Below are positions 7,878-48,500 of a stretch of DNA of 64,000 bases, piece by piece. Numbering within the stretch: the first letter of the stretch is position 1; the number at the start of each line of letters is the position of its first letter. Both the position numbers and the translations under genes were made by a program. The notes below the pieces were generated by a model that worked only from the letters and a program-made list of their open reading frames with translations, was not told where the DNA came from and made no database searches. Origin of the DNA: Candidatus Micrarchaeota archaeon. Lineage in GTDB: Archaea > Micrarchaeota > Micrarchaeia > Micrarchaeales > CABMGC01. The DNA lies in the NCBI GenBank assembly GCA_021850805.1, contig JAJZKO010000002.1:39520-103519 (forward strand), given 5' to 3'.

Positions 7878-8926
7878 TTATTATGGCTAAAAAATATTCT
7901 GATGGAAGGGAAGAGTTCCATGTGGAGAAGGGAGACCCTGTAGGCATGATAGCTGCGCAGTCAATGGGCGAACCTGGAACGCAGATGGTCCTCAGGGCGT
8001 TCCACCTTGCAGGGATAGAATCAACCATATCCACATCTGGACTTCCGCGTATAGCAGAGCTTGTCGATGCGAAGAAGAGCCCCGCAACACCTATAACATA
8101 TGTCTATCTTGACAAGAGCATAAACAAGGATCTCGAGAAGGTAGTCGCACTCATGAAGAAGATAAACGAGGTGCGCATGTCTACAATAATGCGCCACGCC
8201 CCGATGGAGAATTTCGGGAAGGGTCTGATAAAGATCAGCCTCAGCGGGCAGGAACTTGAGTCTGAGCAGCTTACAGCCAAGCAGGTCGCGTCAAAGCTTG
8301 CCAAGGAGCTCGAGGTGGAAGCTTACGAGAAGGATGGTGCAGTATACATAAACGCCCATACAAAGGACGCAAAGAAGATAAGGGCACTCAGCACTAAAAT
8401 ATCAAAGATGGTTGTAAGCGGCATAGAGGGCGCAGGAAAGACTACAGTGCAGAAGGATAAGAATACCGGAGAGTTCTACATAATAGCCGCAGGCAGCAAC
8501 ATAGAGAGCATAATAAACGTCGATGGTGTGGACAAATCCCGCCTTACCACTAACGATGTATTTGCAATATACCGGCTCTTCGGGATAGAGGCTGCAAGGA
8601 ATTCGATAATAAAAGAGCTTAACCAGACGCTGAAGGAGCAGAAGATATCTGTCGATGAACGCCACCTGATGCTAATCGCAGACTCTATGACAAGCGCCGG
8701 CTCGATAAAAGGTGTCGGCAGGCACGGACTGAGCGGTCAGAAAAACTCTGTCCTTGCCAGGGCAGCATATGAAGAGACGGTAAAGCACCTGATACACGCA
8801 GCCGCTTTCGGCGAGATAGATCCGATGGAAGGAGTCACGGAGAACATACTCGTAGGCAAGCAGATACCGATAGGGACAGGTTCTGTGAAGCTCGGCATCA
8901 AGACAGAGCAGCCGAAAAAGAAATAG
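7874..8926 (+). CDS. rpoA2: DNA-directed RNA polymerase subunit A'' (Rpo1C)
   Basis: 350 aa. It overlaps the rpoA1 stop by 4 nt. Conserved GEPGTQM and the C-terminal ENILVGKQIPIGTG are present. ATG at 7883 is an alternative start. Confidence 0.93.
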   Translation: MIIMAKKYSDGREEFHVEKGDPVGMIAAQSMGEPGTQMVLRAFHLAGIESTISTSGLPRIAELVDAKKSPATPITYVYLDKSINKDLEKVVALMKKINEVRMSTIMRHAPMENFGKGLIKISLSGQELESEQLTAKQVASKLAKELEVEAYEKDGAVYINAHTKDAKKIRALSTKISKMVVSGIEGAGKTTVQKDKNTGEFYIIAAGSNIESIINVDGVDKSRLTTNDVFAIYRLFGIEAARNSIIKELNQTLKEQKISVDERHLMLIADSMTSAGSIKGVGRHGLSGQKNSVLARAAYEETVKHLIHAAAFGEIDPMEGVTENILVGKQIPIGTGSVKLGIKTEQPKKK

Positions 8927-8973
8927 CTAATAAAGGTATGCGTGTAATCATAAATGCTAAAAGCGGTGTATAA

Positions 8974-9198
8974 ATGAATCAGGAAAGACCATTCGATCTT
9001 CTGAACAAGGCTGTCGGCCAGCAGGTAATGATAAAACTAAAGAACGGAGACGACATAAGGGGAAAGGTGGTCTCGTTTGACATGCACATGAATATCGTGC
9101 TTGATAATGCGGAGCAGCTTGAGGAAGGAAACCTAAAGGCAAAGATAGGGACAATGCTGCTTAGGGGCGGAAACATACTATTTATATCTCCTGCGTAA
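8974..9198 (+). CDS. Sm-like (LSm/SmAP) RNA-binding protein
   Basis: 74 aa. Sm1/Sm2 pattern: V.IKLKNG..IRG.VVSFDMHMNIVLDNAE followed by LLRGGNILFISP. Confidence 0.85.
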   Translation: MNQERPFDLLNKAVGQQVMIKLKNGDDIRGKVVSFDMHMNIVLDNAEQLEEGNLKAKIGTMLLRGGNILFISPA

Positions 9199-9212
9199 TA
9201 TATACCTCTGTT

Positions 9213-9310
9213 GGGCTTCTGGCGCAACGGTAGCGCGCCTGCATGGCATGCAGGAGGTTGCGGGTTCGAAACCGGCGATTACCTCGCCTGAGAAAATCCC
9301 GCGAAGTCCA
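9213..9310 (+). tRNA. tRNA-Ala (anticodon GGC) with ~26-nt insert in the T-loop
   Basis: - Acceptor stem GGGCTTC/GAAGTCC with a G3:U70 pair and A73.
- D-arm GCGC-AACGGTA-GCGC.
- Anticodon arm CCTGC-ATGGCAT-GCAGG.
- The T-stem GCGGG (9260-9264) pairs with CCCGC (9298-9302), but 33 nt lie between them instead of 7.
- Removing about 9271-9296 restores the T-loop TTCGAAT. Confidence 0.8.
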
Positions 9311-9344
9311 TCACCTTTTCTGCACGACACATCAGAAGGCAACA

Positions 9345-10952
9345 TCAGTCCAGTGTAGTTATCCCCTTCTTCTCATATGCCACCTTCAACCCTGAGGCTA
9401 TTCCCCACGGATAGAAGAGCAGCACAGATACAACTACAACAATCGCCGATGCCTCTATAAATGGCACAGTATTATACAAACCTGTGCTCCCTATTGCGGT
9501 CATAAAGAGCAGGAACGCTATGTATACAATATACCATATTGAGTTGTTGAAGTGCTCCCGTACCTTGAACCAGTATGCGAATACCGCAACTGCAACAGCA
9601 AGTATCAATATCGCATAAGGCACAGACGGCCATCCGCTCCAGAAAACTATCAAAGATGCAGCTGCAAATGCAATTGGGGCTATCACAGGCCCTGCCCTGC
9701 CGAGAAGCGGTTTCCTTGTAGTCCCCTGCCTCCTTGATATGATCATTGCAACAGGGTTCGTTGAGAAGCCTATATAGCCTGCCACTACTGCATCTGTAAG
9801 AAGTCCGTAAATGGAAGGCAACGGTGCAGCTATAAAAGCAACCACGCTGCCAACTATTGCAAATATCACGAGTGATATATACGGTATCGCATAAGTCTCG
9901 TTCAGCTTTTTCATTGACTTATTCACTATCCCTGACCTTCCCATGGCAAAGAGCAGCCTTGATCCGCCGCCAAGATAGATATATCCTGTCACAAACGGGC
10001 CTATTATCCCTACAAAAGCCGCGATTACCAGCAGCCATAGAGCATTATAATTGCCTGCCAGATAAACGAATGGGTTGCCTACAAGGCTGGAAAGGCTTGA
10101 CCACTGCCCAGCGGCAGTTGCCCCGAGAGATGTTATCGCAGTGGAAGCCCAGTTTATCCCTCCGACGAAGACGGCATCGAAAAGCAGGTAGATGAGCGAC
10201 TGCCCTACTATCGTCAGTATTATGGCTTTCCACAAGAAACTCTTCGATTTGAGCTCCTCCGCGTAATCCGGTATCACCCTTATGCCTCCGAAGGCAAACA
10301 TCGCAAGTGGTATTGCAGAGAATATGCCTGCGAATCCAAACGGCGCGAACCCGCCGCTGTATCCTGTAAAGTTCTTCGCGTTGAAGAATACAAATGCAAG
10401 CCCAAGCGCAACGACAACATACGCTATAATCTTTATTACTCCAAATGCCGCTGTAGACCTTCCGAATTTTCTAACCCCGAAGTAGTTGAACGGCACGAAG
10501 AGCAGAAGCAGTACCACGCCTATAACTGCACCTACTAGCGTGGGCGCTCCCGATGAAGTTAGAAGCGTAGGGAAGAAGTAATCCAAGCCTTCCACAACCG
10601 CAAGAGCCTCGACAGGCGGTATAAAAAGATACCATATCAGGTCCGCGAACGCATTTATGAGATTGGTGAACCTTCCGTGAGTGTACAGGGAATACCTAGA
10701 AGGCCCTCCCGCTTCAGGATGCACGGCAGAGAGCTCGACATATGTAAGTCCTATCGTAGCGTAAAAGAGCGCCCCTATAATCCAGGCAAGTATACTGCCA
10801 GGGCCGGCTATCGCAGTCATTCCCGCCGGACTGAATAATGCCGCAGTTCCTACTGCACCAACGACTCCTATTATGAAAATCTGAAACAGGCTAAGTTCCT
10901 TCTTAAGCCCAGGTTTGCGTTTTGTATTTTTACTTGCCGTTCCAACACCCAC
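9345..10952 (-). CDS. amino acid/polyamine (APC superfamily) permease
   Basis: 535 aa. It is highly hydrophobic, with at least 12 predicted TM segments, and glycine-rich helices typical of APC transporters. The family-level call rests only on overall pattern. Confidence 0.6.
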   Translation of the reverse strand: MGVGTASKNTKRKPGLKKELSLFQIFIIGVVGAVGTAALFSPAGMTAIAGPGSILAWIIGALFYATIGLTYVELSAVHPEAGGPSRYSLYTHGRFTNLINAFADLIWYLFIPPVEALAVVEGLDYFFPTLLTSSGAPTLVGAVIGVVLLLLFVPFNYFGVRKFGRSTAAFGVIKIIAYVVVALGLAFVFFNAKNFTGYSGGFAPFGFAGIFSAIPLAMFAFGGIRVIPDYAEELKSKSFLWKAIILTIVGQSLIYLLFDAVFVGGINWASTAITSLGATAAGQWSSLSSLVGNPFVYLAGNYNALWLLVIAAFVGIIGPFVTGYIYLGGGSRLLFAMGRSGIVNKSMKKLNETYAIPYISLVIFAIVGSVVAFIAAPLPSIYGLLTDAVVAGYIGFSTNPVAMIISRRQGTTRKPLLGRAGPVIAPIAFAAASLIVFWSGWPSVPYAILILAVAVAVFAYWFKVREHFNNSIWYIVYIAFLLFMTAIGSTGLYNTVPFIEASAIVVVVSVLLFYPWGIASGLKVAYEKKGITTLD

Positions 10953-12105: not shown

Positions 12106-13974
12106 ATGAAGATCATAGGAATAGATCTGGGAACATCAAACTCTGCAGCTTCAGTTCTTGAAGGTGGCAGACCAGTGCTCATACCGAGCTCCGAGGGTAC
12201 GTCATTATATGGGAAGTCATTCCCAAGCTACGTAGCATTTACCAAAGACGGCCAGCGGCTTGTAGGCGAGCCCGCGAAGCGCCAGGCAGTGGCAAATCCG
12301 GATGGTACGGTAAATGCATTCAAGAGAAAGATGGGAACCAACTACAAGTATAAGATATTCGGGAAGGAGTATACCCCGCAAGAATTATCCGCAATGGTGC
12401 TCCAGAAGATAAAGAAGGATGCGGAAGCCTTCCTCGGCGAAGAGGTAAAGAAGGCGGTGATAACCGTGCCTGCGTACTTCGACGATAACCAGCGCCAGGC
12501 AACAAAAGATGCAGGCGAGATAGCAGGCCTTGAAGTAGTCAGGCTTGTAAACGAGCCAACAGCAGCCTCACTGGCATACGGCCTTGACAAGCAGTCCAAG
12601 GAGATGAAGATACTTGTATACGACTTCGGAGGAGGAACCCTCGACGTCACAGTGATGGAATTCGGCAACGGTGTGTTCGAGGTAAAGTCGACAAGCGGCG
12701 ATACCCAGCTTGGAGGTACTGATATGGATTTCGCAATAGTCAATTTCCTACTAGGCGAGATAAAGAAGCAGCATAACGTTGATATCTCAAAGGACAATCA
12801 AGCCATGCAGCGCTTGAGGGAGGCTGCTGAGAAGGCAAAGATAGAGCTCTCAACAGTCCTGAGCAGCGACATAAACCTTCCCTTCCTCACGATGGGACCT
12901 GGCAATGCGCCCATACACTTCACATACTCGCTGACCAGGGCGAAGCTTGAGGATATCGTGGTCAGCATCGTAGAAAAGACAACGAAGCCTGTAATGCAGG
13001 CGCTCAAGGATGCGAAGCTTGAACCTAATGACATAAGCAAGATAATACTAGTTGGCGGACCTACAAGGATGCCAATAGTGCAGAGATATGTAGAGCAGCT
13101 CCTCGGGAAGAAGATAGAGCGCGGAGTGGATCCGATGGAAGCAGTGGCGTTCGGCGCCGCCATACAGGGAGGTGTGCTGACTGGCGAGGTAAAAGACATA
13201 GTGCTCCTCGACGTGACACCGCTCTCGCTGGGCTTGGAGACCTACGGCGGAGTAATGACAAAACTCATAGAGAGGAACACCACGATACCTGTAAAGAAGA
13301 CGCAAATCTTCACCACTGCAGAGGACAATCAGCCTGCTGTTGACATAAACATACTCCAAGGCGAGCGTGCGATGGCCAAATCAAACATAGAGCTTGGTAA
13401 ATTCCAGCTTACCGGTCTTCCTCCATCCCCGCGCGGCACTCCACAGATAGAAGTAACCTTCGATATAGACGCAAACGGGATACTGCATGTGAGCGCAAAA
13501 GACAAAGCTACCGGCAAGGAGCAGTCAATGAAAGTTGCCGCGCCCAATAAGATGAGCAGGGAAGAAATCGACAAAAAGATAAAGGAAGCGGAGGAGGCGG
13601 CGGATCAGGACAAGAAAGATCTAGAGCGGATACAGATGAAGAATGAGGCTGAAGCCACCGTATACACTACTGAGAGAACAATAAAGGAATTTAAGGATAA
13701 GGTTCCAAAGGAAATAATAGAAAAGGTCGAGAATGCGAACAATGCCCTGAAAGAGGCAATAAAGGCTGATAATACGGAGAGCATCGAAGGCAAGCTTAAT
13801 GAGCTGAAGAGCGTGCTGCAGGAGATAGGCTCCAGCATATACAAGGGCGGTGGTCCAGGAGAGTCTCCTGATGGGCAGGCCCAGGCTCAAGGCCCAAGCT
13901 CAGATGGAGCTCCGGGTCCAGATGGAGGCCAGCCTGGTGACACTATAAACACCGACTTCCAAGTCAAAAAATAG
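12106..13974 (+). CDS. dnaK: Hsp70 chaperone DnaK
   Basis: 622 aa. It contains [18 protein letters not shown] and VGGPTRMP. Confidence 0.97.
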
Positions 13975-13982
13975 TGTAGCGT

Positions 13983-15110
13983 ATGGATAAAGACTACTAC
14001 GATGTCCTCGGAGTGCAGAAATCCGCCTCCCAGGAAGAGATAAAGAAGGCCTACAGGGAACTGGCCCTAAAATACCATCCCGACAGGAACAAAGCCCCTG
14101 ATGCCGAGGAGAAATTCAAGGAGATAAACGAAGCATATGCTGTCCTCAGCGACCCCCAAAAGAGGACGCAGTACGACACATACGGTCCGGATAAGTTCGG
14201 GCAGAGGTATTCACAGGAGGATATCTTCAGGGGCTTCAACTTCGAAGACATATTCAAGGATATGGGAATAAACATAAACTTCGGAGGTTTCGAGAGCAGC
14301 GAAATATTCGGCAATCTCTTCGGAATGCCGCAGGCGCATGCAAGGGGGGATATAGGCCAGAACATACTCTACCGCATGGACCTGTCCCTAGAGGAGGCAG
14401 TTCTCGGAACACAAAAGGAGATAAACATAAGGCATGTAAAGAAATGCCAGAGCTGCGGCGGCTCAGGAGGAGATAAAGGTGCGAAGATGGTGCAGTGCAG
14501 CGCATGCCACGGATCAGGATACATTGCCATAGTTAGGAACTCCATGTTCGGGCGAGTGCAGACAATGTCGGCATGTGCGCGCTGTGGTGGCAGAGGCAAG
14601 TACTACGATAAAAAATGCAAGGTGTGCTCCGGTAAAGGCGGCGTACCTGCAACCGAGACTGTAGAGGTAAGAATTCCTGAGGGTGTAGAGGACGGCATGC
14701 GCCTCCGTCTCCAAGGCATGGGCGATTTCGGGAAGGATGGGAGCGGCGACCTATACGTGGAGGTCCATACGCTCGAGAGCGATAGGTTCAAGCGTGACGG
14801 CGACGACATAATAAGCGAAGTCAGCTTGCCTTTCTATACGGCCATACTGGGCGGCATCGTGCAGGCGCAAACAATACGCGGAAAGCATGAGATAGAGATA
14901 AGCCCAGGTACAGAACCTGGAAAGCGCATAATCATTAAAGGCGCAGGATCAAAGAGATTCAGGCACGGTGGATATGGGGACCACGTGTTCATAATAAAAG
15001 TGGAGATACCAAAGTCGCTCTCACCGGAGGAGAAGGAACTGATAAGCAGGTATAAGGATCTCAACGAGAAGCATCACGACGAATCCCGAAAGAAGTTCGG
15101 CATATTCTAG
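13983..15110 (+). CDS. dnaJ: Hsp40 co-chaperone DnaJ
   Basis: 375 aa. The J domain carries DYYDVLGV and HPD. There are four CxxCxGxG zinc motifs: [24 protein letters not shown] and CKVCSGKG. Confidence 0.95.
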
Positions 15111-23518: not shown

Positions 23519-24913
23519 CTAACCGGCAAAGCAGGATTCATACTGCAGCCCGCTAGGGAAGGAAGAGGTTGCAATCCAATTGCCAACACCGCTGGAAGTA
23601 AGCGCGGCGTAATATACGTTAGAAGTAAGTCCTGCAGGTGTGTACCCTCCGACGCAGTATATGTAGTTATTAACCACTGCGCATGACTCCCCACCAACTT
23701 GGAGAGGATAGCTGCTACTCTGTTTCCATGCTCCTATCCCGCCGCTTCCTACAGCTGCATAATAAACGTTTCCAGTCTCACCTACTGAAGCCCCACTGTT
23801 GGTGTACCCTCCGACGCAATAAACAATGTTTCCGCTTATCACGCACGGCTGCCCTGCTATGGTAATTGGATACGGCTGCGTAGCAAGCCAGTTTCCATCA
23901 GCGCCTGAAGCGATACTTGCATAATAAGTGTCTGTTGTGAATACACTTGCTCCATTGGATCCGCCTATGCAGTATAAATATCCAAGATATGTAACGCATG
24001 ATGTGCCTGTTATCTGCGCTATGGGATATGGGGTCCCTGCGCTCCATCCTCCAAGCCCCGAGGCTCCCGCAGAGGAGTAGAAGATATCATTTGTGTAAGC
24101 ACTGTCGTAATATCCTCCCACGCAATACAAATCACCAGTATAGCTTCCAAATGCGCACTCTTCCCCGACAACGCTTCCAGGATAACTGGCAGCTGTATCC
24201 CATCCTTGTACACCGGTATAAGCCGATGAGATTGGCGCGTAGTATACGGAATTTGAGGATGTGGATCCGCTTCCTCCCACGCAAAAGACCTCCGCGCCGT
24301 TAGAGGCACACGATTGGTCCTGCACATTAGCAGGATATGTTACCGGTGACTTCTTCCATGTCTGAAGCCCGTTCTGTGTCACACCGCCATAATAATCATA
24401 GGTGGTGCCTGTACTTCCAGTATCCCCTCCGACACAATATACAAAGCCCTGTGACGTAGTAGATACAGTTGCACTGATGCTTGCGATCATCTGGCTGAGG
24501 CCTGTCTGAGAGCCCTCAGAATATACAATCCATAAATATCCATTGAAGTGCGAACCTATTGCTGAATTACTCAATGGACACGAGAAAGAAAGGTTATACG
24601 TCTGCCCGGCAAGAAAATTAAGGGCAACAGGAGAGTAAGATGTCGGGGGTGTCTGGTTCGTGGTGCAAGCAATTCCCTGAACAGTGATTCCCGTACCTAC
24701 ATATCCTATGTCTGCGGTAAGTATTCCTCCGCTTGAAAGTTCCGGATTACCACACTTGAATCCTGAATATGCAACGCATGCTGTCGGCAGGCCCGATCCG
24801 CTAAAAACCCCCAGCTCAAAGAGCGCGCCCAGAACCACAGCAATGATTAGTATCGCCCATCCATACGTCATCAGGTACTCCATGGCGCTCTGGATCCTGA
24901 GGTAAGGAACCAT
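23519..24913 (-). CDS. class III signal peptide (pilin-like) protein fused to six Kelch-like beta-propeller repeats
   Basis: The N-terminus is MVPYLRIQSAMEYLMTYGWAILIIAVVLGALFELGVF. The C-terminal two thirds contain six repeats, each ending in [YF]C[VI]GG (FVYCVGG, VFCVGG, LYCVGG, LYCIGG, VYCVGG, IYCVGG). Each repeat also has a YYA...G...W....YP motif. Confidence 0.8.
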   Translation of the reverse strand: MVPYLRIQSAMEYLMTYGWAILIIAVVLGALFELGVFSGSGLPTACVAYSGFKCGNPELSSGGILTADIGYVGTGITVQGIACTTNQTPPTSYSPVALNFLAGQTYNLSFSCPLSNSAIGSHFNGYLWIVYSEGSQTGLSQMIASISATVSTTSQGFVYCVGGDTGSTGTTYDYYGGVTQNGLQTWKKSPVTYPANVQDQSCASNGAEVFCVGGSGSTSSNSVYYAPISSAYTGVQGWDTAASYPGSVVGEECAFGSYTGDLYCVGGYYDSAYTNDIFYSSAGASGLGGWSAGTPYPIAQITGTSCVTYLGYLYCIGGSNGASVFTTDTYYASIASGADGNWLATQPYPITIAGQPCVISGNIVYCVGGYTNSGASVGETGNVYYAAVGSGGIGAWKQSSSYPLQVGGESCAVVNNYIYCVGGYTPAGLTSNVYYAALTSSGVGNWIATSSFPSGLQYESCFAG

Positions 24914-24944: not shown

Positions 24945-26195
24945 CTATCTCTTGATCCTGCCATGGCTCGAGGATAAATCCTTCGCAGCCTCAGCGCAGA
25001 GAAGGTTAAGCTCTCCTGCAAGGCAGACCGCAGCTATAACCTCAGCAAGCTGCAGTCTTGATGTTCCCTCAGGATCATTATCCCCGTACAGACCCATCAT
25101 CTTCAAAACTTCCATCTGTGTCTCTCTCTTAGTGCCGCCACCATAAGTCCCTACCTCTATTGAAGGCAGATAACACGAGATATACAGACCGCCTCTTACA
25201 GCAGTAGCATCGGTAAGAGCCTGCGCTCCTTCAACAACCTGTGCCATATCCTGCCCGAGGGCTAGATACAAAGAGGCAAGCATGTTTGCAACATGCCCGT
25301 TAAAACCATGTGAACCGGCAAGTGCCGAACCGCTCAGGTTCTTTGACTTGTTCAGATCTGCCACTGCTTCAGGCTTAAGTCCAAATCTCTTCTCAAGAAG
25401 CGCTGCAGGTATGAACATATCTACAATCACCGAAACTCCCCTGCCTTCTATAAAATTTATCAAAGCGGGTTTTTTGTCTGAGCACATGTTTCCCGACTCA
25501 CTTACTATCCCTGCCTCTATCCCCTTGCTCTTGCCGAACTCAATTACGATTGCATCAGATGCCATCTTGGAGGCTATGGTGACCATATTCATTCCCATCG
25601 CCGCCCCAGTTGTAGCCCTGAAACGGAGATGCACATCCCTTCCTGATGGGTAAGGCCTGCATTCTATAAACCTCCCATGCCTGGTGCTCCTGGAGAATGC
25701 CTTCCTGAGTATCTCCTGCCCTGCAGCGCTGGACACGAAAGCTGAGAATGCCGCAGCCTCCTTGACGTTTCCGGTCCTTATAAGCACATCTCTAGTCATA
25801 CCATCCCTTATTACTGCGGCATTTATCCCGCCTGCCTCATTCGATGCAGATATTCCCCTGGATATTCCCGCGACGAGTTTGCCCTCCGTAGTCGCAAGAA
25901 GTATGGGATAACTTCTCGAGGCATGCATACCATTGACCTTTATCTCCCCTGCATATCCAAGCGGTACGTGCACTGCTCCAACAGGGTTCTCTATATTCCT
26001 GTCAACAGCATCATTGAAGTCGAGGATTCCTGATCCTACGGCAGAGAGGCTGCATCCGAACTTCTTTTCCAGATAAACCCTCCTTATCATAGTTGCTGTA
26101 TTGCTGTCAATGCCAAGGGACTTCTCCAGGGCGTAAAGTTTTAATTCCCCGTTCTCCATCCTCTTCAACGCCTCATCAATATTTTTCTTATCCAT
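24945..26195 (-). CDS. hmgA: HMG-CoA reductase, class I type
   Basis: 416 aa. It contains ENPVG, LATTEGKLVAG (catalytic Glu), GAAMGMNM, CSDKKPA (catalytic Asp), VGTYGGGT and a C-terminal SSSHG (His). Confidence 0.9.
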   Translation of the reverse strand: MDKKNIDEALKRMENGELKLYALEKSLGIDSNTATMIRRVYLEKKFGCSLSAVGSGILDFNDAVDRNIENPVGAVHVPLGYAGEIKVNGMHASRSYPILLATTEGKLVAGISRGISASNEAGGINAAVIRDGMTRDVLIRTGNVKEAAAFSAFVSSAAGQEILRKAFSRSTRHGRFIECRPYPSGRDVHLRFRATTGAAMGMNMVTIASKMASDAIVIEFGKSKGIEAGIVSESGNMCSDKKPALINFIEGRGVSVIVDMFIPAALLEKRFGLKPEAVADLNKSKNLSGSALAGSHGFNGHVANMLASLYLALGQDMAQVVEGAQALTDATAVRGGLYISCYLPSIEVGTYGGGTKRETQMEVLKMMGLYGDNDPEGTSRLQLAEVIAAVCLAGELNLLCAEAAKDLSSSHGRIKR

Positions 26196-26204
26196 AAAAG
26201 CACC

Positions 26205-27650
26205 TCATATAAGTTTCTCTTTTGTATTTGCCAGCCCATCATTATAAGCCAGCCTGTGCTGATTCAGGCCTCCTGCAAGAGCCGCAGCCGCTGTAAATGC
26301 CGCAACACGGATAGAATTAGATCCAGGGGCTGCATCTCTGCGCAGACCCATTATCGCTTCGCATTCCTTTCTTGTCGGGGAGTCCAACCCTTCGCTCCCC
26401 CACTCGAAATTGGCAAGTGTAACAGAGTACATTATGCCTGATGCGCCATTCACCTTATAGGGCTCCGCATCAGTAACGCATGATGAAGATAATATCGGAG
26501 GAGAGCCCGCGACTGCAGCCATCACTCCAGCTATTATCTCCGGCTCCATTCCACACATATGCGCTCCAGCTCCCAATCTCTCCCTCCAGAGGTGATTCTT
26601 AGAGTAACTCATAATATGCATATCCTCCGCACCGCCGTGTCCTCCTCTTCCGGAGATTTCGTGCACTATATATGATTCTGGAAGGAAGACAGACGCTTTA
26701 ACCTTCCTGCCGCGTATGCTCTTGGCAGAAACTGCCATGTCCCCGTCTTCGCCTCCGGCCAGCCAGAGGCTCCTGTGGGGTATCTTTTCCGCATCAAGTT
26801 TCGCAGTAAGGAAGTTCCTCAGTAGTATGCCTGTAGCATAGGTAGCTATCTCATGCCCGTAAAAATCCCCGTGCATCCTGTATATGAAATTCACCGAGAG
26901 CTCATGCCTATCTCCATTCTTCGCATAAGAGCACGTTATCTCTCCAAGCACACCACCTTTCTGCGAGAGTATCCTGTTAGCAGCATCGTATATATCGGAT
27001 AGGAATTCCGCTGAAGTCATCGCTCTGCGCGCTGCCTCCGCATCTTCAAAATTTTCGAACATGAAAGTCGGCGATCTAGTCGCCACAGAATCCCTTTCCG
27101 CATAAACTTTCACCGTTCCGCTTGAACCGTAATCAACAAGCTTCTTAATCATCTTTATGCCAAAGCTCACTCCTTCAGTAACTCCACCCCTAAAATTACA
27201 CATCGGTATAAATTCCGAGGCGCCAAAACCAGCTTCCTTGTGCCCGTTTTCATTTACCTCAACCTCGATGCTTACCGGCCCCGCAATTGTTATCCTGTCC
27301 CCGCCTATGTATTGCACATATTCCGGTTTTCCTGACTCTGTGGCAAGATCCCAGTGGGCAGAATTCCTCAGGTAGTCAAGCCTGACTCCGTTTCCGGATG
27401 CTTCCATATGCCTCTCCACTCCCCGTCTAAGCACTTCTCCGGCGTAGTACTGATAAAAAGCGGCAATCTCATTCTCTGCGAATGCAGAAGTATATGCTCT
27501 TACCCTGCCCTGTTCGAACCTCTTCTCGATCTCCTGTGGAACCTTGTGGAGCGGCACACGCCCCCTGAAAACTCCCTCTGCAAGGGAGTCAAGGACGCCT
27601 TCAAGCTTCTTTCTCTGCGCAGGGTACCTTCTCTCTATCTCGTAAGCCAT
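26205..27650 (-). CDS. divergent HMG-CoA-reductase-fold paralogue lacking canonical catalytic residues; function unknown
   Basis: 481 aa. By eye it aligns along its length to the adjacent hmgA. Examples are VATRSPTFMFENFEDAEAA against the HMGR GMTR.P..RF motif, IRGRKVKASVFLPE against IEGRGVSVIVDMFIP, and EAIMGL...AAFTAAAALAGGLN against EVLKMMGL...IAAVCLAGELN. However, TTEG is replaced by NFRG, DAMGMNM by RMHGDFYG, and SDKK by VSAKS. Confidence 0.6.
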   Translation of the reverse strand: MAYEIERRYPAQRKKLEGVLDSLAEGVFRGRVPLHKVPQEIEKRFEQGRVRAYTSAFAENEIAAFYQYYAGEVLRRGVERHMEASGNGVRLDYLRNSAHWDLATESGKPEYVQYIGGDRITIAGPVSIEVEVNENGHKEAGFGASEFIPMCNFRGGVTEGVSFGIKMIKKLVDYGSSGTVKVYAERDSVATRSPTFMFENFEDAEAARRAMTSAEFLSDIYDAANRILSQKGGVLGEITCSYAKNGDRHELSVNFIYRMHGDFYGHEIATYATGILLRNFLTAKLDAEKIPHRSLWLAGGEDGDMAVSAKSIRGRKVKASVFLPESYIVHEISGRGGHGGAEDMHIMSYSKNHLWRERLGAGAHMCGMEPEIIAGVMAAVAGSPPILSSSCVTDAEPYKVNGASGIMYSVTLANFEWGSEGLDSPTRKECEAIMGLRRDAAPGSNSIRVAAFTAAAALAGGLNQHRLAYNDGLANTKEKLI

Positions 27651-27654
27651 TACA

Positions 27655-28530
27655 TCACATTTCCTCTTCTATAAGCCGAACGGTCTCCCTTGGCGTAGAT
27701 CCGAATGGTATTCCCGCCTTCTTGAATGCAGCGACCTTCTCTTCTATACTCCCGCCGCTTCCAGAGACTATTGCACCAGCATGGCCCATCTTCCTGCCCA
27801 TAGGCGCATACCTGCCTGCCATATATGCTACAACTGGCTTTTTTATCAATCCATCCAATACCATCGATGCTACTTCCTCCTCCTGCGAACCGCCTATCTC
27901 GCCTACGAGCAATATTGCTTTAGTATCACTATCTTCCTCGAAGAGCCTGCATATCTGCGAGAACCTCAAGCCCTGCACCGGATCTCCCCCAACTCCTACG
28001 CATGTGGATTCTCCAAGCCCTGCCTCAGACATTCGTGAAGCCATCTCATACATCAGCGTGCCGCTCCTTGAGGCTATCCCTATCTTTCCAGGAGAAAAAA
28101 CGGCATTAGGCACAAAGCCTATCTTAACCTTTAGCATGGGATCTATTATCCCTGCAGTATTAGGCCCTATAAGAACGGCTCCTGACCTTCTCGCAGCAGA
28201 GACCATCCGTACCTCGCTGTGCAACGGTATGTTTTCTGGAGGAGCCACAACCAGCTTTATCCCGGCGTTGAAGGCTTCAAGCGCCGCGTCGAGCGCAGCC
28301 GCAGGAGGCACAAAAAGAACAGAAGAATTTGCATCCGTAGCATCGACAGCTTCTGATACAGTATCGAATACCGGCACTCCATTGACATCCTTGCCTCCTG
28401 CACCAGGCCTCACCCCTCCTACTACGCGTGTGCCATACTCTAGCATGGTTATCGCATGCATGCTGCCTGCCCTGCCAGTTATACCCTGCACTATGACCTT
28501 CGTATCCTTATTTAGTATTATTCCCATCAA
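27655..28530 (-). CDS. succinyl-CoA synthetase alpha-subunit-like protein (CoA-binding, phosphohistidine subunit)
   Basis: 291 aa. It contains KVIVQGITGRAGSMH and GVPVFDTV, plus the phosphohistidine loop MGHAGAIVSG. It overlaps the beta-like gene by 4 nt. Confidence 0.8.
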   Translation of the reverse strand: MMGIILNKDTKVIVQGITGRAGSMHAITMLEYGTRVVGGVRPGAGGKDVNGVPVFDTVSEAVDATDANSSVLFVPPAAALDAALEAFNAGIKLVVAPPENIPLHSEVRMVSAARRSGAVLIGPNTAGIIDPMLKVKIGFVPNAVFSPGKIGIASRSGTLMYEMASRMSEAGLGESTCVGVGGDPVQGLRFSQICRLFEEDSDTKAILLVGEIGGSQEEEVASMVLDGLIKKPVVAYMAGRYAPMGRKMGHAGAIVSGSGGSIEEKVAAFKKAGIPFGSTPRETVRLIEEEM

Positions 28531-29597
28531 GCATCAACCGCCGCCTTCACCGCACTCTCCAGGTCTGCAAAATTACGTATGCCACACCTTAGCAGAACAT
28601 TCTCGCCGCTTCTAACCATGTTTCCAGCCATTCTGACGACAATCTTGAATCCTGGCTTCCTATCCTCTACAAATCTGCGCACGCCTTCCGCCATCTCGTC
28701 GCACCTGTTCAGCCCTGCAAATAGGTTCACCAGCATCGCCTTCATGGATCCGCGTTCGCTGAGAATGCAGCACGCTTCGTACAAGCCGTCCCCATCAACC
28801 TGCGCCAGGTCTAAGAAGTTCGCAGGTTTTCCACCGGCCATGCTTATCATATCCAGTGTGGCCATCGCAAGCCCTGCACCACTGCATACCAGACCTATAT
28901 CCCCGCCGATATCAACATAAGACCATCCCTTCTTCCACATCCTTGCTTCTATCCCATCCTTTACCTCATTGGTGCGTATCTGCGTACTATCAACCGATAT
29001 AACCGCATCAAGAGCTATCAGCTTCCCGCTGCGGTCCACCCCTGCAGGGTTTATCTCCACCGTCTCGGCGCCGTAATCACGGAATATCTTGTAAATTCCC
29101 ATAATAAGCCTGCCTGCCTCTTCCCTCTCGGCAATACCCGCTGCCTCTATAAGCCTGTGCGCTTCCTCAACACCAAACCCGTCATCAAGATCAAAATAGT
29201 GCCTTTCCAAGGAGGCCTTTCCATCCTCAACGTTGATGCCGCCATTACCGGCTATTGCAACTGCCTTCGCACTTGAGAAATCAAGCGAGAATGCGAAGTA
29301 ATATTCCTTAGAAGCATCCACGCGCTCCTCAATTATAAGGCTGTCTACAACATGCCCGTCCACGTTCAAACCTAGCATCCGTGCAGAGGCATCTGCAGCC
29401 TCATCCTCGGATGAGACAAAAGAGACAAGCCCGCGCTTTCCCCTTCCCTTTATCCCAATAGGTTTTATTACTGCACTACTTCCCAAAGCCCTGAATCTTT
29501 GAACTGCTTCTGCAACTGTGAATACCTCAAAGCCCATGGGAATGCGTATCCCTTCTTTCTTAAAAATCGCTTTTCCATCAGTCTCCTTTATATTCAC
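28527..29597 (-). CDS. succinyl-CoA synthetase beta-subunit-like ATP-grasp protein
   Basis: 356 aa. The N-terminus MNIKETDGKAIFKKEGIRIP...VIKPIGIKGRGKRG resembles the ATP-grasp domain of SucC/ADP-forming ligases. It is somewhat shorter than typical SucC. The substrate cannot be read from the sequence. Confidence 0.7.
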   Translation of the reverse strand: MNIKETDGKAIFKKEGIRIPMGFEVFTVAEAVQRFRALGSSAVIKPIGIKGRGKRGLVSFVSSEDEAADASARMLGLNVDGHVVDSLIIEERVDASKEYYFAFSLDFSSAKAVAIAGNGGINVEDGKASLERHYFDLDDGFGVEEAHRLIEAAGIAEREEAGRLIMGIYKIFRDYGAETVEINPAGVDRSGKLIALDAVISVDSTQIRTNEVKDGIEARMWKKGWSYVDIGGDIGLVCSGAGLAMATLDMISMAGGKPANFLDLAQVDGDGLYEACCILSERGSMKAMLVNLFAGLNRCDEMAEGVRRFVEDRKPGFKIVVRMAGNMVRSGENVLLRCGIRNFADLESAVKAAVDA

Positions 29598-29736
29598 CAG
29601 GCTTCACCCTACAGCGACATCAAGCATATTTGCTGCCAACGCGTATCTGACAGCATCAGATACATGCCCAAATCCCATATTTAATTAAGGATATGTGCAT
29701 CGTCATGTAACGTTGCATAGAAAATCTGCAGACAAG

Positions 29737-30774
29737 TCATACGCGGCCTTTCAGGAACGCTGCCCCTCCTCTCAGCGAGACGCTCACAGGTGTGCATTCA
29801 AATCCTTCCTTCCTAATACACCTGCAAGTTTCCTCATTGCATAGTATTATTGCCATTCCTCCTCCGCCGCCTCCGCTGAGCTTGGCTCCATACGCGCCGC
29901 AGGCCTTAGCGCAAGAGACTAGCCTGTCCAGACCATCGCTCGAGACCCCAAGCCTAACAAGTGCATCGTGATTTGCATACATCTCCTTGCCGACAGCATC
30001 AAAATCACCTACTCTAATCGCTTCTATGCCCCTCCTTGCACATGAGTCTATGCTATCAAACAGTCTCTCTGCATAAGGGGTATCATTTTCATGCAGCCTT
30101 GAGACTATTCCCACAGTCTCCGCTGTGCTCTTTTTAGGTCCTGTATCTACAATCGCAATGTCCATTCCTGCGCCGAGCTCTTCCCTGCGTACTCCGCTTC
30201 CCTTGCTGTAGCTTATGCATCCGCCGTAGAAAGAAGTGGGCACGTCTATCCTCCCGGCATTCTCATTTCTATGTATTATCCTGTCGCCGTCAAGCGCGCG
30301 CTCTATCACCTCGCCTTCAGTGTAAGAGCCTTCATAGAGATTTGCTGCAGCAACAGAGAGCGCAACAGAGCACGCAGCGCTGCTGGCCAGCCCCTTCTGC
30401 ACCGGTATCATAGAGCGTATCTCGAATCTTTTCGGGCCGATGCTGCCACCATCAGCACAGTACCTGCCAATGATAGTGGCGTAAGGCAGGAGCCTTGAAT
30501 CCACCCTTCGTTTAAAATTATCGACATACGCGTTTATCGAGTCACGTGCAGAATATTCCGATGCAATATCCAAGAGCTCTGCATCCGAGAATACTGTTTC
30601 CAATGAGAAATCCGGAAGGGATATGTGCACCTTGCCTTCATTGTCATTTGCATCTACCGAAACGCTTGAATACAAACTCACGGCTATCGCGGCAGAGAGC
30701 CTGCCATAAACTACTGCATGTTCACCAAACAGCTTGATTACGCCTGGAGCCTGCACAACGGCCAAAGGAACCAC
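29737..30774 (-). CDS. mvk: mevalonate kinase (GHMP kinase family)
   Basis: 345 aa. It contains APGVIKLFGEHAVVYG, the GHMP motif GLASSAA, and a C-terminal GAKLSGGGGGG. Confidence 0.8.
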   Translation of the reverse strand: MVPLAVVQAPGVIKLFGEHAVVYGRLSAAIAVSLYSSVSVDANDNEGKVHISLPDFSLETVFSDAELLDIASEYSARDSINAYVDNFKRRVDSRLLPYATIIGRYCADGGSIGPKRFEIRSMIPVQKGLASSAACSVALSVAAANLYEGSYTEGEVIERALDGDRIIHRNENAGRIDVPTSFYGGCISYSKGSGVRREELGAGMDIAIVDTGPKKSTAETVGIVSRLHENDTPYAERLFDSIDSCARRGIEAIRVGDFDAVGKEMYANHDALVRLGVSSDGLDRLVSCAKACGAYGAKLSGGGGGGMAIILCNEETCRCIRKEGFECTPVSVSLRGGAAFLKGRV

Positions 30775-37662: not shown

Positions 37663-39078
37663 TCACGCAGTACAGCAGCTTAACCTTGACACGTCCTCAT
37701 AAAAAGACTGTGCAGCAAGTTTGAAGCTCTCGCTGAGAGTAGGGAAGACATGCACAGTATCTATTATGTCATCTATAGTAAGGCCGAATTTCACCGCTAA
37801 CACGCCTTCATGTATCATATCCGCAGCGTGAGATGCAAGCATATGCACACCAAGTATCTTCTTGGTCTTGTGGTCAATTACTATCTTAACTACTCCCCTA
37901 TAATCTCCTACAATCTTTGCCTTAGGAACAAGGGCAAGGTTCAAAGGGCTGCAAGCGCACCGTATCCCGTCTTTCACTACTTGCTCTTCAGTCATCCCGA
38001 CCATCGCCGCTTCTGGATATGTAAATATGGCACTTGGTATCTCATTCAAATTTATTCTTTTCTTAGCATGCTGGAAGATATTTGACGTTGCTACATTTCC
38101 CTCTTTCGCTGCGAGGGTCTCAAGCATCGGCTGCCCAGTTACGTCACCAGCTGCATATATCACCTTTGATGATGTCCTTAGGGTCTTGTCCACAATTACG
38201 AACTTCTTACCATCAAGCCTGATTCCTGCCGCTGTTGCATTGAGCTTTTCAGTATTCGCAGCCCTTCCAGTCGCAAACAAGACCTCATCCGCTTCGTAAT
38301 AAAACGTCCTTTCCCCTATCTTCGCTTTCAGGATCTTCCGTCCCCTGTTTTTGTCTATGCCAACCGGTTCTGCATCTGTTACTATCTTAACCCCTCCTTT
38401 CTCCAGGTAACTTTTAAGATACTCGCTTATCTCAGGCTCCCAGTTAGGTATTATCCTGCTGCTCCTCTGGAGCAACGTAACCTTAACCCCAAAATCTGAG
38501 AACATCTGCGCAAATTCAAGCCCTATAGCTCTCCCGCCGATTATTAAGATAGAGTCTGGCAGCTTCCTCAAGGATAGTGCATCCTCGCTTGTCAGATAAT
38601 CCACTTTTGACAAACCTTCGAGCTCCGGGACCATGGCACGCGCTCCTGTAGCTACAAGCGTATTTTTTGCGGCAATCTCCATTCTGCCTGCCTTGATCGT
38701 ATCCTCGTCTATAAAAGATCCGAAAGAATTGATGTACGTCACATTCTCAAGTGATTCTAGAACAGTGCCGTACTTCTCATTCCTAAGCTTCTCCACGAGC
38801 CGCTTCTTCTCCTGGAAAATCTCTTCATAGTCAATTCCGTTAACATGATAATCGACCCCGCGGAATCTTCTCTCGCCAAGCTCCCTGAAGAATGTGCTTA
38901 CGGTGAGTAGCCTCTTACTCGGAACGCATCCTACATTGATGCATGTACCACCAAGAATTGTGCCTTTGGTCGCATTCCTCCCTATCATAACCGTGCGCAC
39001 TCCTAAGCTATTTGCCTTTATAGCCGCAGAGAAGGCGGCCGAACCTTGGCCTATTATGGCATAATCAAATTTCTCTAT
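37663..39078 (-). CDS. merA: mercuric reductase MerA (core enzyme without NmerA domain); start codon non-canonical or unresolved
   Basis: It has the redox-active CINVGCVPSK and a C-terminal vicinal pair SRLSCCTA. The Rossmann motif FDYAIIGQGSAAFSAA is encoded in frame at 39016-39069, upstream of the first ATG/GTG. Between the in-frame TGA (39079-39081) and that motif, the only start-like codon is ATA at 39076-39078. Confidence 0.75.
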   Translation of the reverse strand: MEKFDYAIIGQGSAAFSAAIKANSLGVRTVMIGRNATKGTILGGTCINVGCVPSKRLLTVSTFFRELGERRFRGVDYHVNGIDYEEIFQEKKRLVEKLRNEKYGTVLESLENVTYINSFGSFIDEDTIKAGRMEIAAKNTLVATGARAMVPELEGLSKVDYLTSEDALSLRKLPDSILIIGGRAIGLEFAQMFSDFGVKVTLLQRSSRIIPNWEPEISEYLKSYLEKGGVKIVTDAEPVGIDKNRGRKILKAKIGERTFYYEADEVLFATGRAANTEKLNATAAGIRLDGKKFVIVDKTLRTSSKVIYAAGDVTGQPMLETLAAKEGNVATSNIFQHAKKRINLNEIPSAIFTYPEAAMVGMTEEQVVKDGIRCACSPLNLALVPKAKIVGDYRGVVKIVIDHKTKKILGVHMLASHAADMIHEGVLAVKFGLTIDDIIDTVHVFPTLSESFKLAAQSFYEDVSRLSCCTA

Positions 39079-45522: not shown

Positions 45523-48500
45523 TTATCCAGGAATGGAATAATTATTATGTATCCAGCTCGGCTTAGGCACCACATAAGGTAGCGTGCCTGTGAAATTGTC
45601 AAGCTTGAATATCATTATATGATTACCAGTATTATTCACATAATTGACTCCTGTCACGTTTGAAGGATACACCAAAGTGAATCCGGGAAGCTTCCCAAGG
45701 AAGAACCCCCTATAGTAATTCGACTGGTAGAACTCGGAGGGTGCATTGGTGATCGTGTCATTCGGCCCGTTTGGCATGTATATGGCCATGAAGCTTAGGA
45801 ACGTCTGGTTATTGCTCGTAGGCACCGCTCCCTCAAAGAAGCTATCAGATACTGCTATATTGGTCTCCGTGCCGTTCTGGTAAAAGAGACGCACTGGCGC
45901 TCCTGTAGAGAGGAACGATTCGGGCATGCAATACGTAGTATTTCCTACAGTTCCGAATGGGAAACTGCCAGTGAACTGCAGGGCTTTTATGTAAACGTTT
46001 GTACTATTTGAGATCGAGCAATAATCGCCTATGCTTGACCCTGTGCTGGTCAAGACCGATTCCGGTATCATTATATATGACGGGTCGTGAGCAAGCTCGC
46101 ATCTGGAAGTTCCAAGCACATAAGACTGACCATACTGCTGCCCTGCGCTTATTGCAAAAGTCCTGGTGGTCTCATTAACACCTACGCAAGCCAGGAAATC
46201 CAGCGCACCCCACTTGGGTACAAGCTGATCATCGAAAAGCACATAGCCCGCCTGCGCAGAGTCCATGAAATGCGCAAGTTCCGTATAATTATATCCATCA
46301 GCAGGACCTAAGACGTACTGGGCCGCAACCTTGTAATCATATGTAGGCACCGCATTGTCGCCCCTTATAACCGCGTTGCTGTTTCCAAACCAGTTAATCC
46401 AATCCCCGTAATCCCACCATGAGAGTATCCTTGGTGCGTTAGGCCCGACGTTTGCCCTCATCCAATCCGTGGCCGCTATCCAGCTTGGCGATATTGTATT
46501 GCAATACAGGAAATTGCCAATCTGATTATTGCTATTCTGTATGGTAGTGCAGTTGGGGTTAAGGGCTGCCGCAGAAGCAGAATAAAGTACAGGTATGAAT
46601 ATTGACATAGCCAGCAGGCCTATCAGCGCATATGCCGTATAAACGTAAATCTTATCCTTAAGCCCCTTCTCTGCTATGATTATTATCTCCCCTATTATAA
46701 CCGATAACGCTATGGCATATGCCACTGCGAAATGCGGAAGATACTTGACCTCGCTGAACCCTGCAAAAGCAAGCACGATTATTACAGACACTGCAAGTAT
46801 GCTTGTCTGCGAGTTCTTGTAAAAGATATTCATTGCAGATATGATAAGGAAGATCGCCAGTACACCAAGGACGAGAAGATTGCCTGGCAGATGCAGCGCA
46901 ACCGAACCCATGCCTGCGCTGTCAAAGTTGAAGTTCAGCCCTGTCGGTGCAAACTCCTGCACCGTCATGAAAAGCGGCGTATTAGGGGTTGTAAAATGCG
47001 CGCCTATGCTCAAGTAATTCAATATTGGCTTACCTAACGGAGTAAAGAAAGTAACGAGCAGGCCGATTACTATTATTGCTGCAAGCATAGCTATTCTTGT
47101 TATTAAGAGATCCTTCTCCGGTACATCGATACTCATAACCTTGCTTGTGTATTTCCTTATGCTCTTGGGCAGATCATCTGTCCTTGGCAGGTAGTCCAAG
47201 AGGAATATGACTGCAAGAGCAAAGACAGGTATTGCTATAATTATAGGAATGCCTGCTACGCTCGGTGTCCTGTTCGTAAGTGATGCTCCGTATGGCGCAT
47301 AGAGCAGGTAAGTTATTATTATTACCCCTATAACGATTGCATTCATTATGTAGAAATCAGTGTTATCCTTCTCCCTTAGTAGATTAACAGCTCCTTGCAG
47401 GAATATGTAAAGCCCTATGATTGCCGCAGGTACAAAGTAATAGTGTGCACCTAGGAAGTTGGAGGCAAACGCTATTCCAGCAAGTACTGCATAGCGCTTC
47501 TCCTTCATGTTCCTTATCGCAACGATATAAGTGGCAAAGAAGAAGAAGAGCGCAAATATGCCCCACGGTTCGAGAAGCTGCTCCCCAGCTATGAACGGCT
47601 GGTAGATAACCGGCATCGCGGCAACAAGCGTAGCGCCAAACAGGGCAGCTTTCTCCCCGTAATCATATTTTATGAAGATGAATACCACGAATACAAGGAG
47701 CGCGGCAACAAGGGGCGGATAAAGGCTGCTCACCTGGCTAAGGAGCGTATTATTCAGATATTTATAGTGGAAATTGGTATTTGCAAGGTCATACCAGTAT
47801 ACCTCCAGATACGGCACAAGAGGCTGTATCCTGTGATTGACTCCCTGCACAACAGACGGCCACGCGGCATGGTCAAACGGTATCTGATAGCCGTAAGTAA
47901 GTATATACTGCGCGCTTACCATGTCAAAATAAGGATCGAACTCGAAGTATTTCGGCGCTACTCCAAAGCTGAGCATACGGCTCGTAAAAGTGAATATTAG
48001 AAGAAGAACAAAAAGGAAAGTTATTATGTTGCTGGTGCTCAGAAGCGGCTTCTTACTGCGGTGCGCATGTACTTTGTCTCCATGAGCATCTCTGGTAAAG
48101 GCGATCTCACGGTGAAGATGACGTTCTTCAAGGCGTCTCTTCTCCTCCTTGTGCGATTCGGAGATGCGCTTCCTCTCCTCTTCGCTTGAATCCTTGAGAA
48201 GAGCCATCTCGCGTTCGTGTTCCTCTTCAAGTTCCTTCTCCTTCTTCCTATGCTCCTCAAGCATCGCAGCTCCTTCCTCGCCTCCATGCTCATGTATCCA
48301 CTTCCTTACGGAGTGTATGCTTGACGAATCGAGATCAGCAGGCAGAGCTCCTGTTCCTGCACTGCCTTTTAACATGCCCAAGCCAGAGTTCAGGTCAAGC
48401 ACTCCCTGCTTAATGCAGAGCACAAGGCCTATCAATGAAAGAATTATTACATTGGCGTTGTACAGCCATATCGAGTACGAAAAGAAATGCAGATATGGTA

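Follow-up and report, generated by a model that had tools for sequence, protein, structure and literature searches.

A succinyl-CoA synthetase-like ligase linked to a degenerate HMG-CoA reductase paralogue in mevalonate gene clusters of Micrarchaeota and Aenigmatarchaeota: a candidate HMG–CoA ligase

The mevalonate pathway is classically entered through thiolase, then 3-hydroxy-3-methylglutaryl-CoA (HMG-CoA) synthase (HMGS) and then HMG-CoA reductase (HMGR). In a Candidatus Micrarchaeota archaeon, two genes resembling those of succinyl-CoA synthetase (SCS) lie next to mevalonate kinase (MVK) and directly in front of an HMGR-like paralogue and a canonical HMGR. What is such a ligase doing in a mevalonate gene cluster? 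The genes belong to a stretch of 64,000 nt (assembly GCA_021850805.1, contig JAJZKO010000002.1, positions 39,520-103,519), here called the window, to which coordinates refer unless a locus number precedes them. A preliminary description of the window had offered two readings: an ordinary SCS that happens to sit there, or a ligase that activates another acid to feed HMGR. Having compared about 100 related loci (L numbers below), we favor a form of the second, in which the ligase would be an ADP-forming HMG–CoA ligase that feeds HMGR, aided by an HMGR-like accessory protein that is not a reductase. We judge the chances of this proposal, drawn from sequence comparison, to be evenly balanced.

The gene order given in the preliminary description (sucC-like, sucD-like, HMGR-like and hmgA, all on the minus strand) was reproduced by a six-frame list of open reading frames (ORFs), Pfam and NCBIfam. 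The first gene (28527..29597, minus strand) starts with GTG and encodes an SCS-beta-like, ATP-grasp ligase subunit of 356 aa with the domains ATP-grasp_2 (PF08442) and Ligase_CoA (PF00549). It is followed on the same strand by the SCS-alpha-like, CoA-binding phosphohistidine subunit (27655..28530; 291 aa; CoA_binding, PF02629, and Ligase_CoA, PF00549), the HMGR-like paralogue (26205..27650; 481 aa; PF00368 at 33.4 bits, cut-off 27) and hmgA (24945..26195; 416 aa; PF00368 at 339.8 bits), a canonical class I HMGR of the NADPH type. The latter scored 391 bits with TIGR00533, slightly under the cut-off of 441.8, and it matched the HMGR of M. thermolithotrophicus (6hr7) with 298 bits. Its residues E69, K241, D316 and H411 are the equivalents of the human catalytic residues, so that the full tetrad is present. 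MVK (29737..30774, minus strand; 345 aa) was confirmed 139 nt upstream of the beta gene on the same strand; it scored 182.4 bits with TIGR00549 (cut-off 163) and has the domains GHMP_kinases_N and GHMP_kinases_C. The 64-kb window contains no thiolase, no HMGS and no second SCS.

The junctions within the module are tight. The beta and alpha genes meet in GCT TGA TGG, an overlap of 4 nt (TTGA) with a TTG start of alpha or of 1 nt (TGATG) with the next ATG. An overlap had been described here and is indeed present, although it does not literally read ATGA. The gaps of 4 and 9 nt described for the following junctions were found as such: the alpha and HMGR-like genes are separated by TGTA, the HMGR-like and HMGR genes by GGTGCTTTT. 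The spacer of 139 nt between MVK and beta (29598..29736, minus strand) contains an AT-rich box, TTAATTAAATAT, read from the sequence, which is possibly an archaeal promoter. A sigma-70 promoter and terminator scan, a model unsuited to an archaeon, gave promoter-like signals at the shuffle mean and terminator-like signals about 2 sd above it.

In enzymes of the SCS family, the beta subunit binds the nucleotide and the acid and sets the acid substrate. The beta subunit of the window scored 221.9 bits with the SucC equivalog NF001913 (cut-off 370), 206 bits with TIGR01016 (cut-off 375.6) and 187 bits with the MtkA equivalog NF010647 (cut-off 604), and so fell short of all three. Among solved structures SCS was the best match (170 bits); citryl-CoA synthetase/ATP-citrate lyase (6hxq_B and 6hxj_A) gave 64 to 66 bits. 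Database matches of beta came in tiers, with about 25 clusters at 204 to 312 bits, followed by a plateau at 165 to 185 bits of several hundred canonical SCS and malate–CoA ligases. In a neighbor-joining (NJ) tree of 126 sequences, the top tier formed a clade apart from both SCS and malate–CoA ligase in 100 of 100 bootstraps, a value that supports the separation of the clade and not the branching order inside it. When the PLSDB plasmids were searched by tblastn with a bacterial member of the clade, all matches were canonical sucC or mtkA, none above 37.5% identity.

Four loops, all in the C-terminal domain of beta, are altered and fixed clade-wide. The NGAGLAM motif is changed to S(S/C)GAGL(T/S/A)M (SGAGLAM in the window), FGGI(T/V)RC to FAGLNRC (FAGLNRCD in the window; FAGINRC in malate–CoA ligase), FLD(I/V)GGGA to FLDxAQxD (FLDLAQVD in the window) and RLxGTN to RMxGN (RMAGN in the window). 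The NGAG and FGGI(T/V)RC loops reportedly contact succinate in SCS structures. The beta subunit is also shorter than usual, as had been remarked before, because of linker deletions of 10 aa and 4 aa that are specific to its species group; elsewhere in the clade, beta measures 353 to 381 aa. The alpha subunit scored 354.9 bits with the SucD-type equivalog NF004230, over the cut-off of 336, and 299 bits with the SCS alpha subunit of M. jannaschii (2yv1). The motifs SRSGTL and GEIGG are present, and the GHAGA phosphohistidine loop, which the preliminary description had pointed out, is indeed kept as MGHAGAIV.

Could the pair nevertheless be an ordinary SCS of the tricarboxylic acid (TCA) cycle, lying beside a decaying duplicate of HMGR? 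That alpha passes the SucD cut-off, that SCS is the best solved-structure match and that databases name members of the clade succinate–CoA ligase all speak for it. The TCA cycles of Micrarchaeota are near-complete but lack SCS (PMC8975820), a gap that the pair could fill. On the other hand, most Micrarchaeota are reported to lack SCS (PMC8975820, PMC8407392), so that the pair is not simply a standard TCA-cycle gene. Against an ordinary SCS, too, stand the low scores of beta, its position in all bootstraps outside the canonical SCS clade and its changed loops. These results speak against the first reading of the preliminary description, and we regard it as very unlikely.

The neighboring HMGR-like gene is very rare. 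When 1.84 billion representatives were searched exhaustively by phmmer with the HMGR-like protein, 13 matched, 10 of them with E < 1e-10, and no canonical HMGR came up at E < 1e-3. Word-indexed search found five clusters, and the gene was present in 5 of 185,579 species genomes. All matches of known taxonomy were from Micrarchaeota or Aenigmatarchaeota. We retrieved the genomic context, with 10-kb flanks, for every full-length member for which look-up was possible, and added L032 and L082 from a metagenome scan. In every locus with readable flanks (L001-L019, L032 and L082), the ligase beta and alpha pair adjoined the HMGR-like gene, and in all but one of them a canonical HMGR followed the module. 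MVK adjoined the module in most, and MVK, MVD, a PMK-like kinase, NUDIX/IDI and polyprenyl synthase were often found alongside. One locus, in a Candidatus Micrarchaeota metagenome-assembled genome (MAG), was near-identical to that of the window (91% identity). In the other lineages, the HMGR-like proteins were only 29-38% identical to that of the window and the linkage was kept, which indicates that it is maintained by selection. Conservation in relatives, a question raised by the preliminary description, thus extends across Micrarchaeota and Aenigmatarchaeota and recurs in about 10 independent lineages, and this is hard to reconcile with an ordinary SCS that sits there by chance. With the ligase grouping apart from canonical SCS and the linkage conserved, the second reading of that description gained support by comparative inference.

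Two exceptions to the usual gene order are informative. L009 begins with the HMGR-like gene, followed by beta, alpha and HMGR. In L017 (L017:6848-11401), beta, alpha and the HMGR-like gene stand without an adjoining HMGR, from which it follows that the conserved core consists of the ligase pair and the HMGR-like gene. In the Aenigmatarchaeota loci L014 and L019, the module lies inside a complete isoprenoid supercluster that includes HMGS. In L020 (L020:737-1463), from a hot-spring MAG of the Micrarchaeaceae, only frameshifted fragments of the HMGR-like gene are left, no ligase lies beside them, and the remnant appears to be a decaying pseudogene. This one case speaks for the reading as an ordinary SCS beside a decaying duplicate; the HMGR-like gene of the window, by contrast, is intact.

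Several of these loci have neighbors of their own. The module of L017 is divergent from a PIG3-type quinone oxidoreductase (zinc-ADH family), with a type II restriction-modification fusion gene in the vicinity. The supercluster of L014 (L014:2700-18394; also L019) comprises polyprenyl synthase, HMGS, two NUDIX genes, MVD, a HAD hydrolase, the ligase, the HMGR-like gene, HMGR, two MVK-like genes, a PMK-like gene and IDI2. Its HMGS (470 aa) has HMG_CoA_synt_N and HMG_CoA_synt_C domains and lies under every HMGS model cut-off, and the last gene of the cluster encodes an NAD-dependent glycerol-3-phosphate dehydrogenase of the bacterial type, whose product is G3P and not archaeal G1P. One lineage carries an 83-aa ORF without a Pfam match between the ligase alpha and HMGR-like genes (L010:2571-2822; also L011 and L012). 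In L032 (L032:2242-4771), AMP-binding-like and LuxC/aldehyde-dehydrogenase-like genes, the latter of the acyl-CoA reductase type, lie directly upstream of the ligase.

The preliminary description was right that the paralogue is homologous to HMGR; the loss of its catalytic residues had gone unremarked. An AlphaFold2 model built from an alignment of 10 sequences of the HMGR-like family had a pLDDT of 84 and a pTM of 0.87. Foldseek matched it best to the class I HMGRs of human and Methanothermococcus (1hw8, 1dqa and 6hr8; E of 4e-18 to ~ 1e-17), with TM scores of 0.6-0.7 at 15-19% identity. Alignment of the family with the canonical HMGRs of the clusters by hhalign gave a probability of 99.65% over 400 columns. 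Residues were mapped by hhalign and independently by MAFFT L-INS-i, and the two agreed. In human numbering, catalytic Glu559 is variable in the family (V112 in the window), Lys691 is Leu or Met (M305), Asp767 is Pro, Gly or Ala within a PPSPP loop (G382) and His866 is Lys, Ser or Ala (K477). Of further residues, Lys692 is Arg or Ala, Ser684 is Ala, His752 is Met and Asn755 is an invariant Glu. The NADPH motifs are degraded, DAMGMN to GDxYGHE, with an invariant His-Glu in place of its M-N, and GTxGGGT to EWGxEG(L/P/I)x. The protein thus retains none of the residues needed for hydride transfer and is therefore not a second, conventional reductase.

Other parts of the protein are well kept. Three residues of the HMG pocket, Arg590, Asp690 and Lys735, are all invariant in the family and the GRG motif is retained. 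In complexes of human HMGR, the free carboxylate of HMG is paired with Lys735, and Asp690 is part of the cis-loop, which contacts the HMG moiety. Judged from these residues, the HMGR-like protein probably still recognizes an HMG-like moiety. As many as 40 alignment columns are invariant across the family, which shows that the paralogue is under constraint. Such constraint on an intact gene with a confident predicted fold does not fit a decaying duplicate. Most likely, the HMGR-like protein assists the ligase as an accessory subunit that binds HMG or HMG-CoA, whether for regulation, for channelling or as an adaptor. We also considered that it might form a mixed dimer ('prozyme') with HMGR. In class I HMGRs, as seen in the human structure, each active site combines residues of both monomers. 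In a mixed dimer, neither site would have its full set of catalytic elements and, as L017 illustrates, the HMGR-like gene goes with the ligase and not with HMGR; this arrangement is thus unlikely.

Almost as likely as the role of an accessory subunit is a new catalytic function of the HMGR-like protein, exerted through invariant residues of its own. In its fullest form, this would make the three-gene core a self-contained enzyme built like ATP-citrate lyase, in which the HMGR-like protein carries out a new, non-reductive reaction on the CoA ester that the ligase makes from HMG or from a similar acid. Selection or inversion of the pro-R/pro-S arm, thioester transfer and hydrolysis are candidate reactions, for which H266, E267, E371, D302, R313, R315, E416 and E420 would be available. 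Consistent with such an enzyme, the HMGR-like gene co-occurs strictly with the ligase and not with HMGR (L017, and the order in L009), the 40 columns have stayed invariant among proteins of only 29-38% identity, Asn755 and the M-N of DAMGMN have given way to invariant Glu and His-Glu, and the arrangement parallels that of citryl-CoA synthetase with a citrate-synthase-like module. However, the sequence names no particular reaction, and both the bacterial members of the ligase clade and the archaeal loci L027-L029 (below) work with a lyase or an HMGR in the lack of any such subunit. We consider this explanation unlikely as a whole.

To see the ligase clade in other settings, we collected contexts through four look-ups and by scanning metagenomes for the signature of the clade, which gave 80 loci, and annotated them with profiles built here, Pfam and NCBIfam. 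Most members were bacterial, and the named MAGs were of Thermodesulfobacteriota/'Deltaproteobacteria', including Desulfarculus. In the bacterial operons, an XRE-cupin or IclR regulator is followed by beta, alpha, a transporter and HMG-CoA lyase (e.g. L040, L056 and L087). The transporter is of the TRAP DctPQM, TAXI-TRAP, TTT TctCBA or Liv-type ABC kind. Loci of this type include L023, L040, L053, L056, L057, L070, L081, L087 and L095 among others, with the ligase mostly near 8001-10030. The lyase of L023 and five of eight further copies tested scored 365-422 bits with the HMG-CoA lyase model NF004283 (cut-off 246). Flanks of 4 kb or more were available for 42 loci of the clade; among these, we counted a transporter as neighbor in 26, a regulator in 24, an HMG-CoA lyase-like gene in 15, HMGR in 4 and HMGS in 1; 11 had none of these. 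The operon looks as if it serves the catabolism of HMG or of a related hydroxy-dicarboxylate; its ligase genes are now annotated as succinyl-CoA synthetase.

Two further contexts stand out. In L027-L029, archaeal contigs without the HMGR-like paralogue, beta and alpha are followed directly by canonical HMGR (e.g. L028:8001-11384), and in L050 (L050:7887-12399) by an archaeal-type HMGS (528 bits, cut-off 244) and acetoacetyl-CoA thiolase. The other neighbors in L027-L029 are FtsZ, ribosomal protein L10e and diphthamide synthase; L050 lies on a contig of 533 kb, with a divergently transcribed biotin carboxylase upstream. The clade is thus tied to HMG-CoA lyase, HMGR and HMGS, and HMG-CoA is the only metabolite common to all three. 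The simplest common denominator is therefore that the clade interconverts HMG and HMG-CoA. Contexts that are catabolic or related to HMG-CoA, rather than to the TCA cycle, also argue against an ordinary SCS. Of the acids listed in the preliminary description (free HMG, acetoacetate and acetate), these links favor free HMG.

The same contexts bear on acetoacetate or acetate as substrate. The ligase would then supply acetoacetyl-CoA or acetyl-CoA to HMGS and bypass the unfavorable thiolase step. This would suit the clusters of L014 and L019, which have HMGS and no thiolase, and L050, where the ligase adjoins HMGS and thiolase; in addition, acetoacetate is a product of HMG-CoA lyase in the bacterial operons. 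But such a substrate would leave the bacterial operons, with their transporter, ligase and lyase, without a source of HMG-CoA, and it does not account for L027-L029, which tie the ligase straight to HMGR, or for L006, L013 and L018, which carry the steps from HMGR onward and the ligase with no HMGS within the sequenced flanks. Moreover, FAGLNRC resembles the motif of malate–CoA ligase, and malate is a hydroxy-dicarboxylate. Activation of acetoacetate or acetate therefore seems to us rather improbable.

If the ligase does act on HMG, the pathway would run as follows. By analogy with SCS, ATP would phosphorylate the histidine of MGHAGAIV in the alpha subunit. HMG, held by the beta subunit, would then take over the phosphoryl group, which CoA would displace in turn to yield HMG-CoA. 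The adjacent class I HMGR would reduce HMG-CoA to mevalonate, which the neighboring MVK would then phosphorylate. The module could in this way provide an ATP-driven salvage or auxiliary entry to isoprenoid lipid synthesis. The opposite direction is conceivable: HMGR would form HMG-CoA by oxidizing mevalonate, obtained for instance by scavenging from a host, and the ligase would convert this HMG-CoA to HMG and make ATP by substrate-level phosphorylation. Reactions of the SCS family are reversible, class II HMGRs are known to run oxidatively, and DPANN archaea have few energy-conserving routes. Yet the module lies among the anabolic genes MVK, MVD, PMK, IDI and polyprenyl synthase, its HMGR is of class I, the biosynthetic NADPH type, and the bacterial operons couple the ligase to uptake and a lyase, which implies the direction of ligation. 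We give this reversal very little credence.

Several observations weigh against an HMG–CoA ligase. By its sequence, the alpha subunit is canonical-like. Our trees are NJ trees only, of sequences sampled from the best matches to the query. The position of the altered loops along the acid site is putative and follows what Huang and Fraser reportedly described in 2016. Three of the eight further lyase-like proteins are divergent and fall under the HMG-CoA lyase cut-off, and the 11 of 42 loci that give no hint mean that the clade may hold several specificities, succinate included. Free HMG would need a source, for which spontaneous hydrolysis of HMG-CoA is one candidate. Finally, HMGS is present in L014/L019 and L050, and complete mevalonate pathways, ACAT and HMGCS included, are reported for several orders of Micrarchaeota (PMC12892359). 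The ligase is thus not required in place of de novo formation of HMG-CoA, and it is probably an auxiliary, salvage or repair entry instead.

Taken across all contexts, the proposal of an HMG–CoA ligase can be widened. The whole SCS-family clade would be an ATP-dependent HMG–CoA ligase, used for catabolism in bacteria (uptake, ligation and lyase) and for entry into the mevalonate pathway in archaea, with the catalytically dead HMGR paralogue as a third subunit in Micrarchaeota and Aenigmatarchaeota, in an enzyme built like ATP-citrate lyase. The archaeal entry might salvage HMG from the environment or a host, or recover HMG from labile HMG-CoA that has been hydrolyzed, and the three-subunit machine would hand HMG-CoA to the true reductase. 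We advance this wider picture tentatively, as a possibility that leans to the doubtful side.

The rest of the window carries archaeal housekeeping genes, among them split RpoB, RpoA, ribosomal proteins, MCM, RadA and thermosome. On the same strand as hmgA and 31 nt downstream of it lies a gene for a Kelch-repeat protein of 464 aa (23519-24913, minus strand), whose hydrophobic N-terminus resembles that of an archaeal type-IV pilin; it is conserved in the close relatives L001-L005. A second lipid-related gene, for a geranylgeranyl-reductase-like flavoprotein (GGR_cat), was found about 19 kb from the mevalonate cluster (48885-49991, plus strand). The window also contains an ORF of 1049 aa without a Pfam match (45523-48672, minus strand), as well as bacterial-type DnaK and DnaJ and a dihydrolipoamide-dehydrogenase-like flavoprotein (12106-15110, plus strand, and 37663-39000, minus strand).

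A search of a library of papers found no description of this ligase clade, of an HMG–CoA ligase, of an HMGR paralogue in DPANN archaea or of an operon of ligase, transporter and HMG-CoA lyase. The coupling of an SCS-family ligase to a pseudo-HMGR is a real novelty. If the proposed activity is correct, an ATP-driven HMG–CoA ligase would be a new enzyme activity and would open a new salvage or repair branch of archaeal lipid synthesis. This would bear on the debate on how far DPANN archaea rely on their hosts for membrane lipids. The analysis also brings to light a widespread bacterial operon (regulator, ligase, transporter and HMG-CoA lyase) that is uncharacterized as far as our literature search showed, and a very rare family of pseudo-HMGRs, whose strict association with the ligase calls for explanation.

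How does the module compare with known systems? Like SucCD, the ligase has two subunits, an alpha subunit with a CoA-binding domain and the GHAGA loop and a beta subunit with ATP-grasp and Ligase_CoA domains. It differs in that beta is under the equivalog cut-off and in a separate clade, with SGAG, FAGLNRC, AQxD and GN where SCS has NGAG, FGGITRC, GGGA and GTN, and in that the context of the clade is the mevalonate pathway or HMG-CoA lyase and not the TCA cycle. Malate–CoA ligase (MtkAB) is likewise an SCS-family enzyme that has diverged to a hydroxy-dicarboxylate, and it shares the FAG(I/L)NRCD loop; malate–CoA ligases, however, keep NGAG and GGGA and group with SCS, not with the clade of the window. 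The sole enzyme that we found listed for conversion of free HMG to HMG-CoA is succinate–hydroxymethylglutarate CoA-transferase (EC 2.8.3.13; PMC8085960). Its product is the one proposed here, but it belongs to an unrelated family and transfers CoA from succinyl-CoA, whereas the ligase would work by ATP-dependent ligation. The HMGR-like protein shares with class I HMGR the fold, the equivalents of R590, D690 and K735 and the GRG motif, and differs from it, at an identity of 15-20%, in the replacement of E559, K691, D767, H866, S684, H752 and N755 and in the decay of DAMGMN and GTxGGGT. In its architecture, the module would resemble ATP-citrate lyase, which joins an SCS-like ligase with a modified homologue of the enzyme that handles the CoA ester. 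The two differ in that ATP-citrate lyase gives only about 65 bits to beta and that the putative third component here is a homologue of HMGR and not of citrate synthase. The substrate of citryl-CoA synthetase and ATP-citrate lyase is citrate (3-hydroxy-3-carboxyglutarate), the closest chemical analogue of HMG (3-hydroxy-3-methylglutarate).

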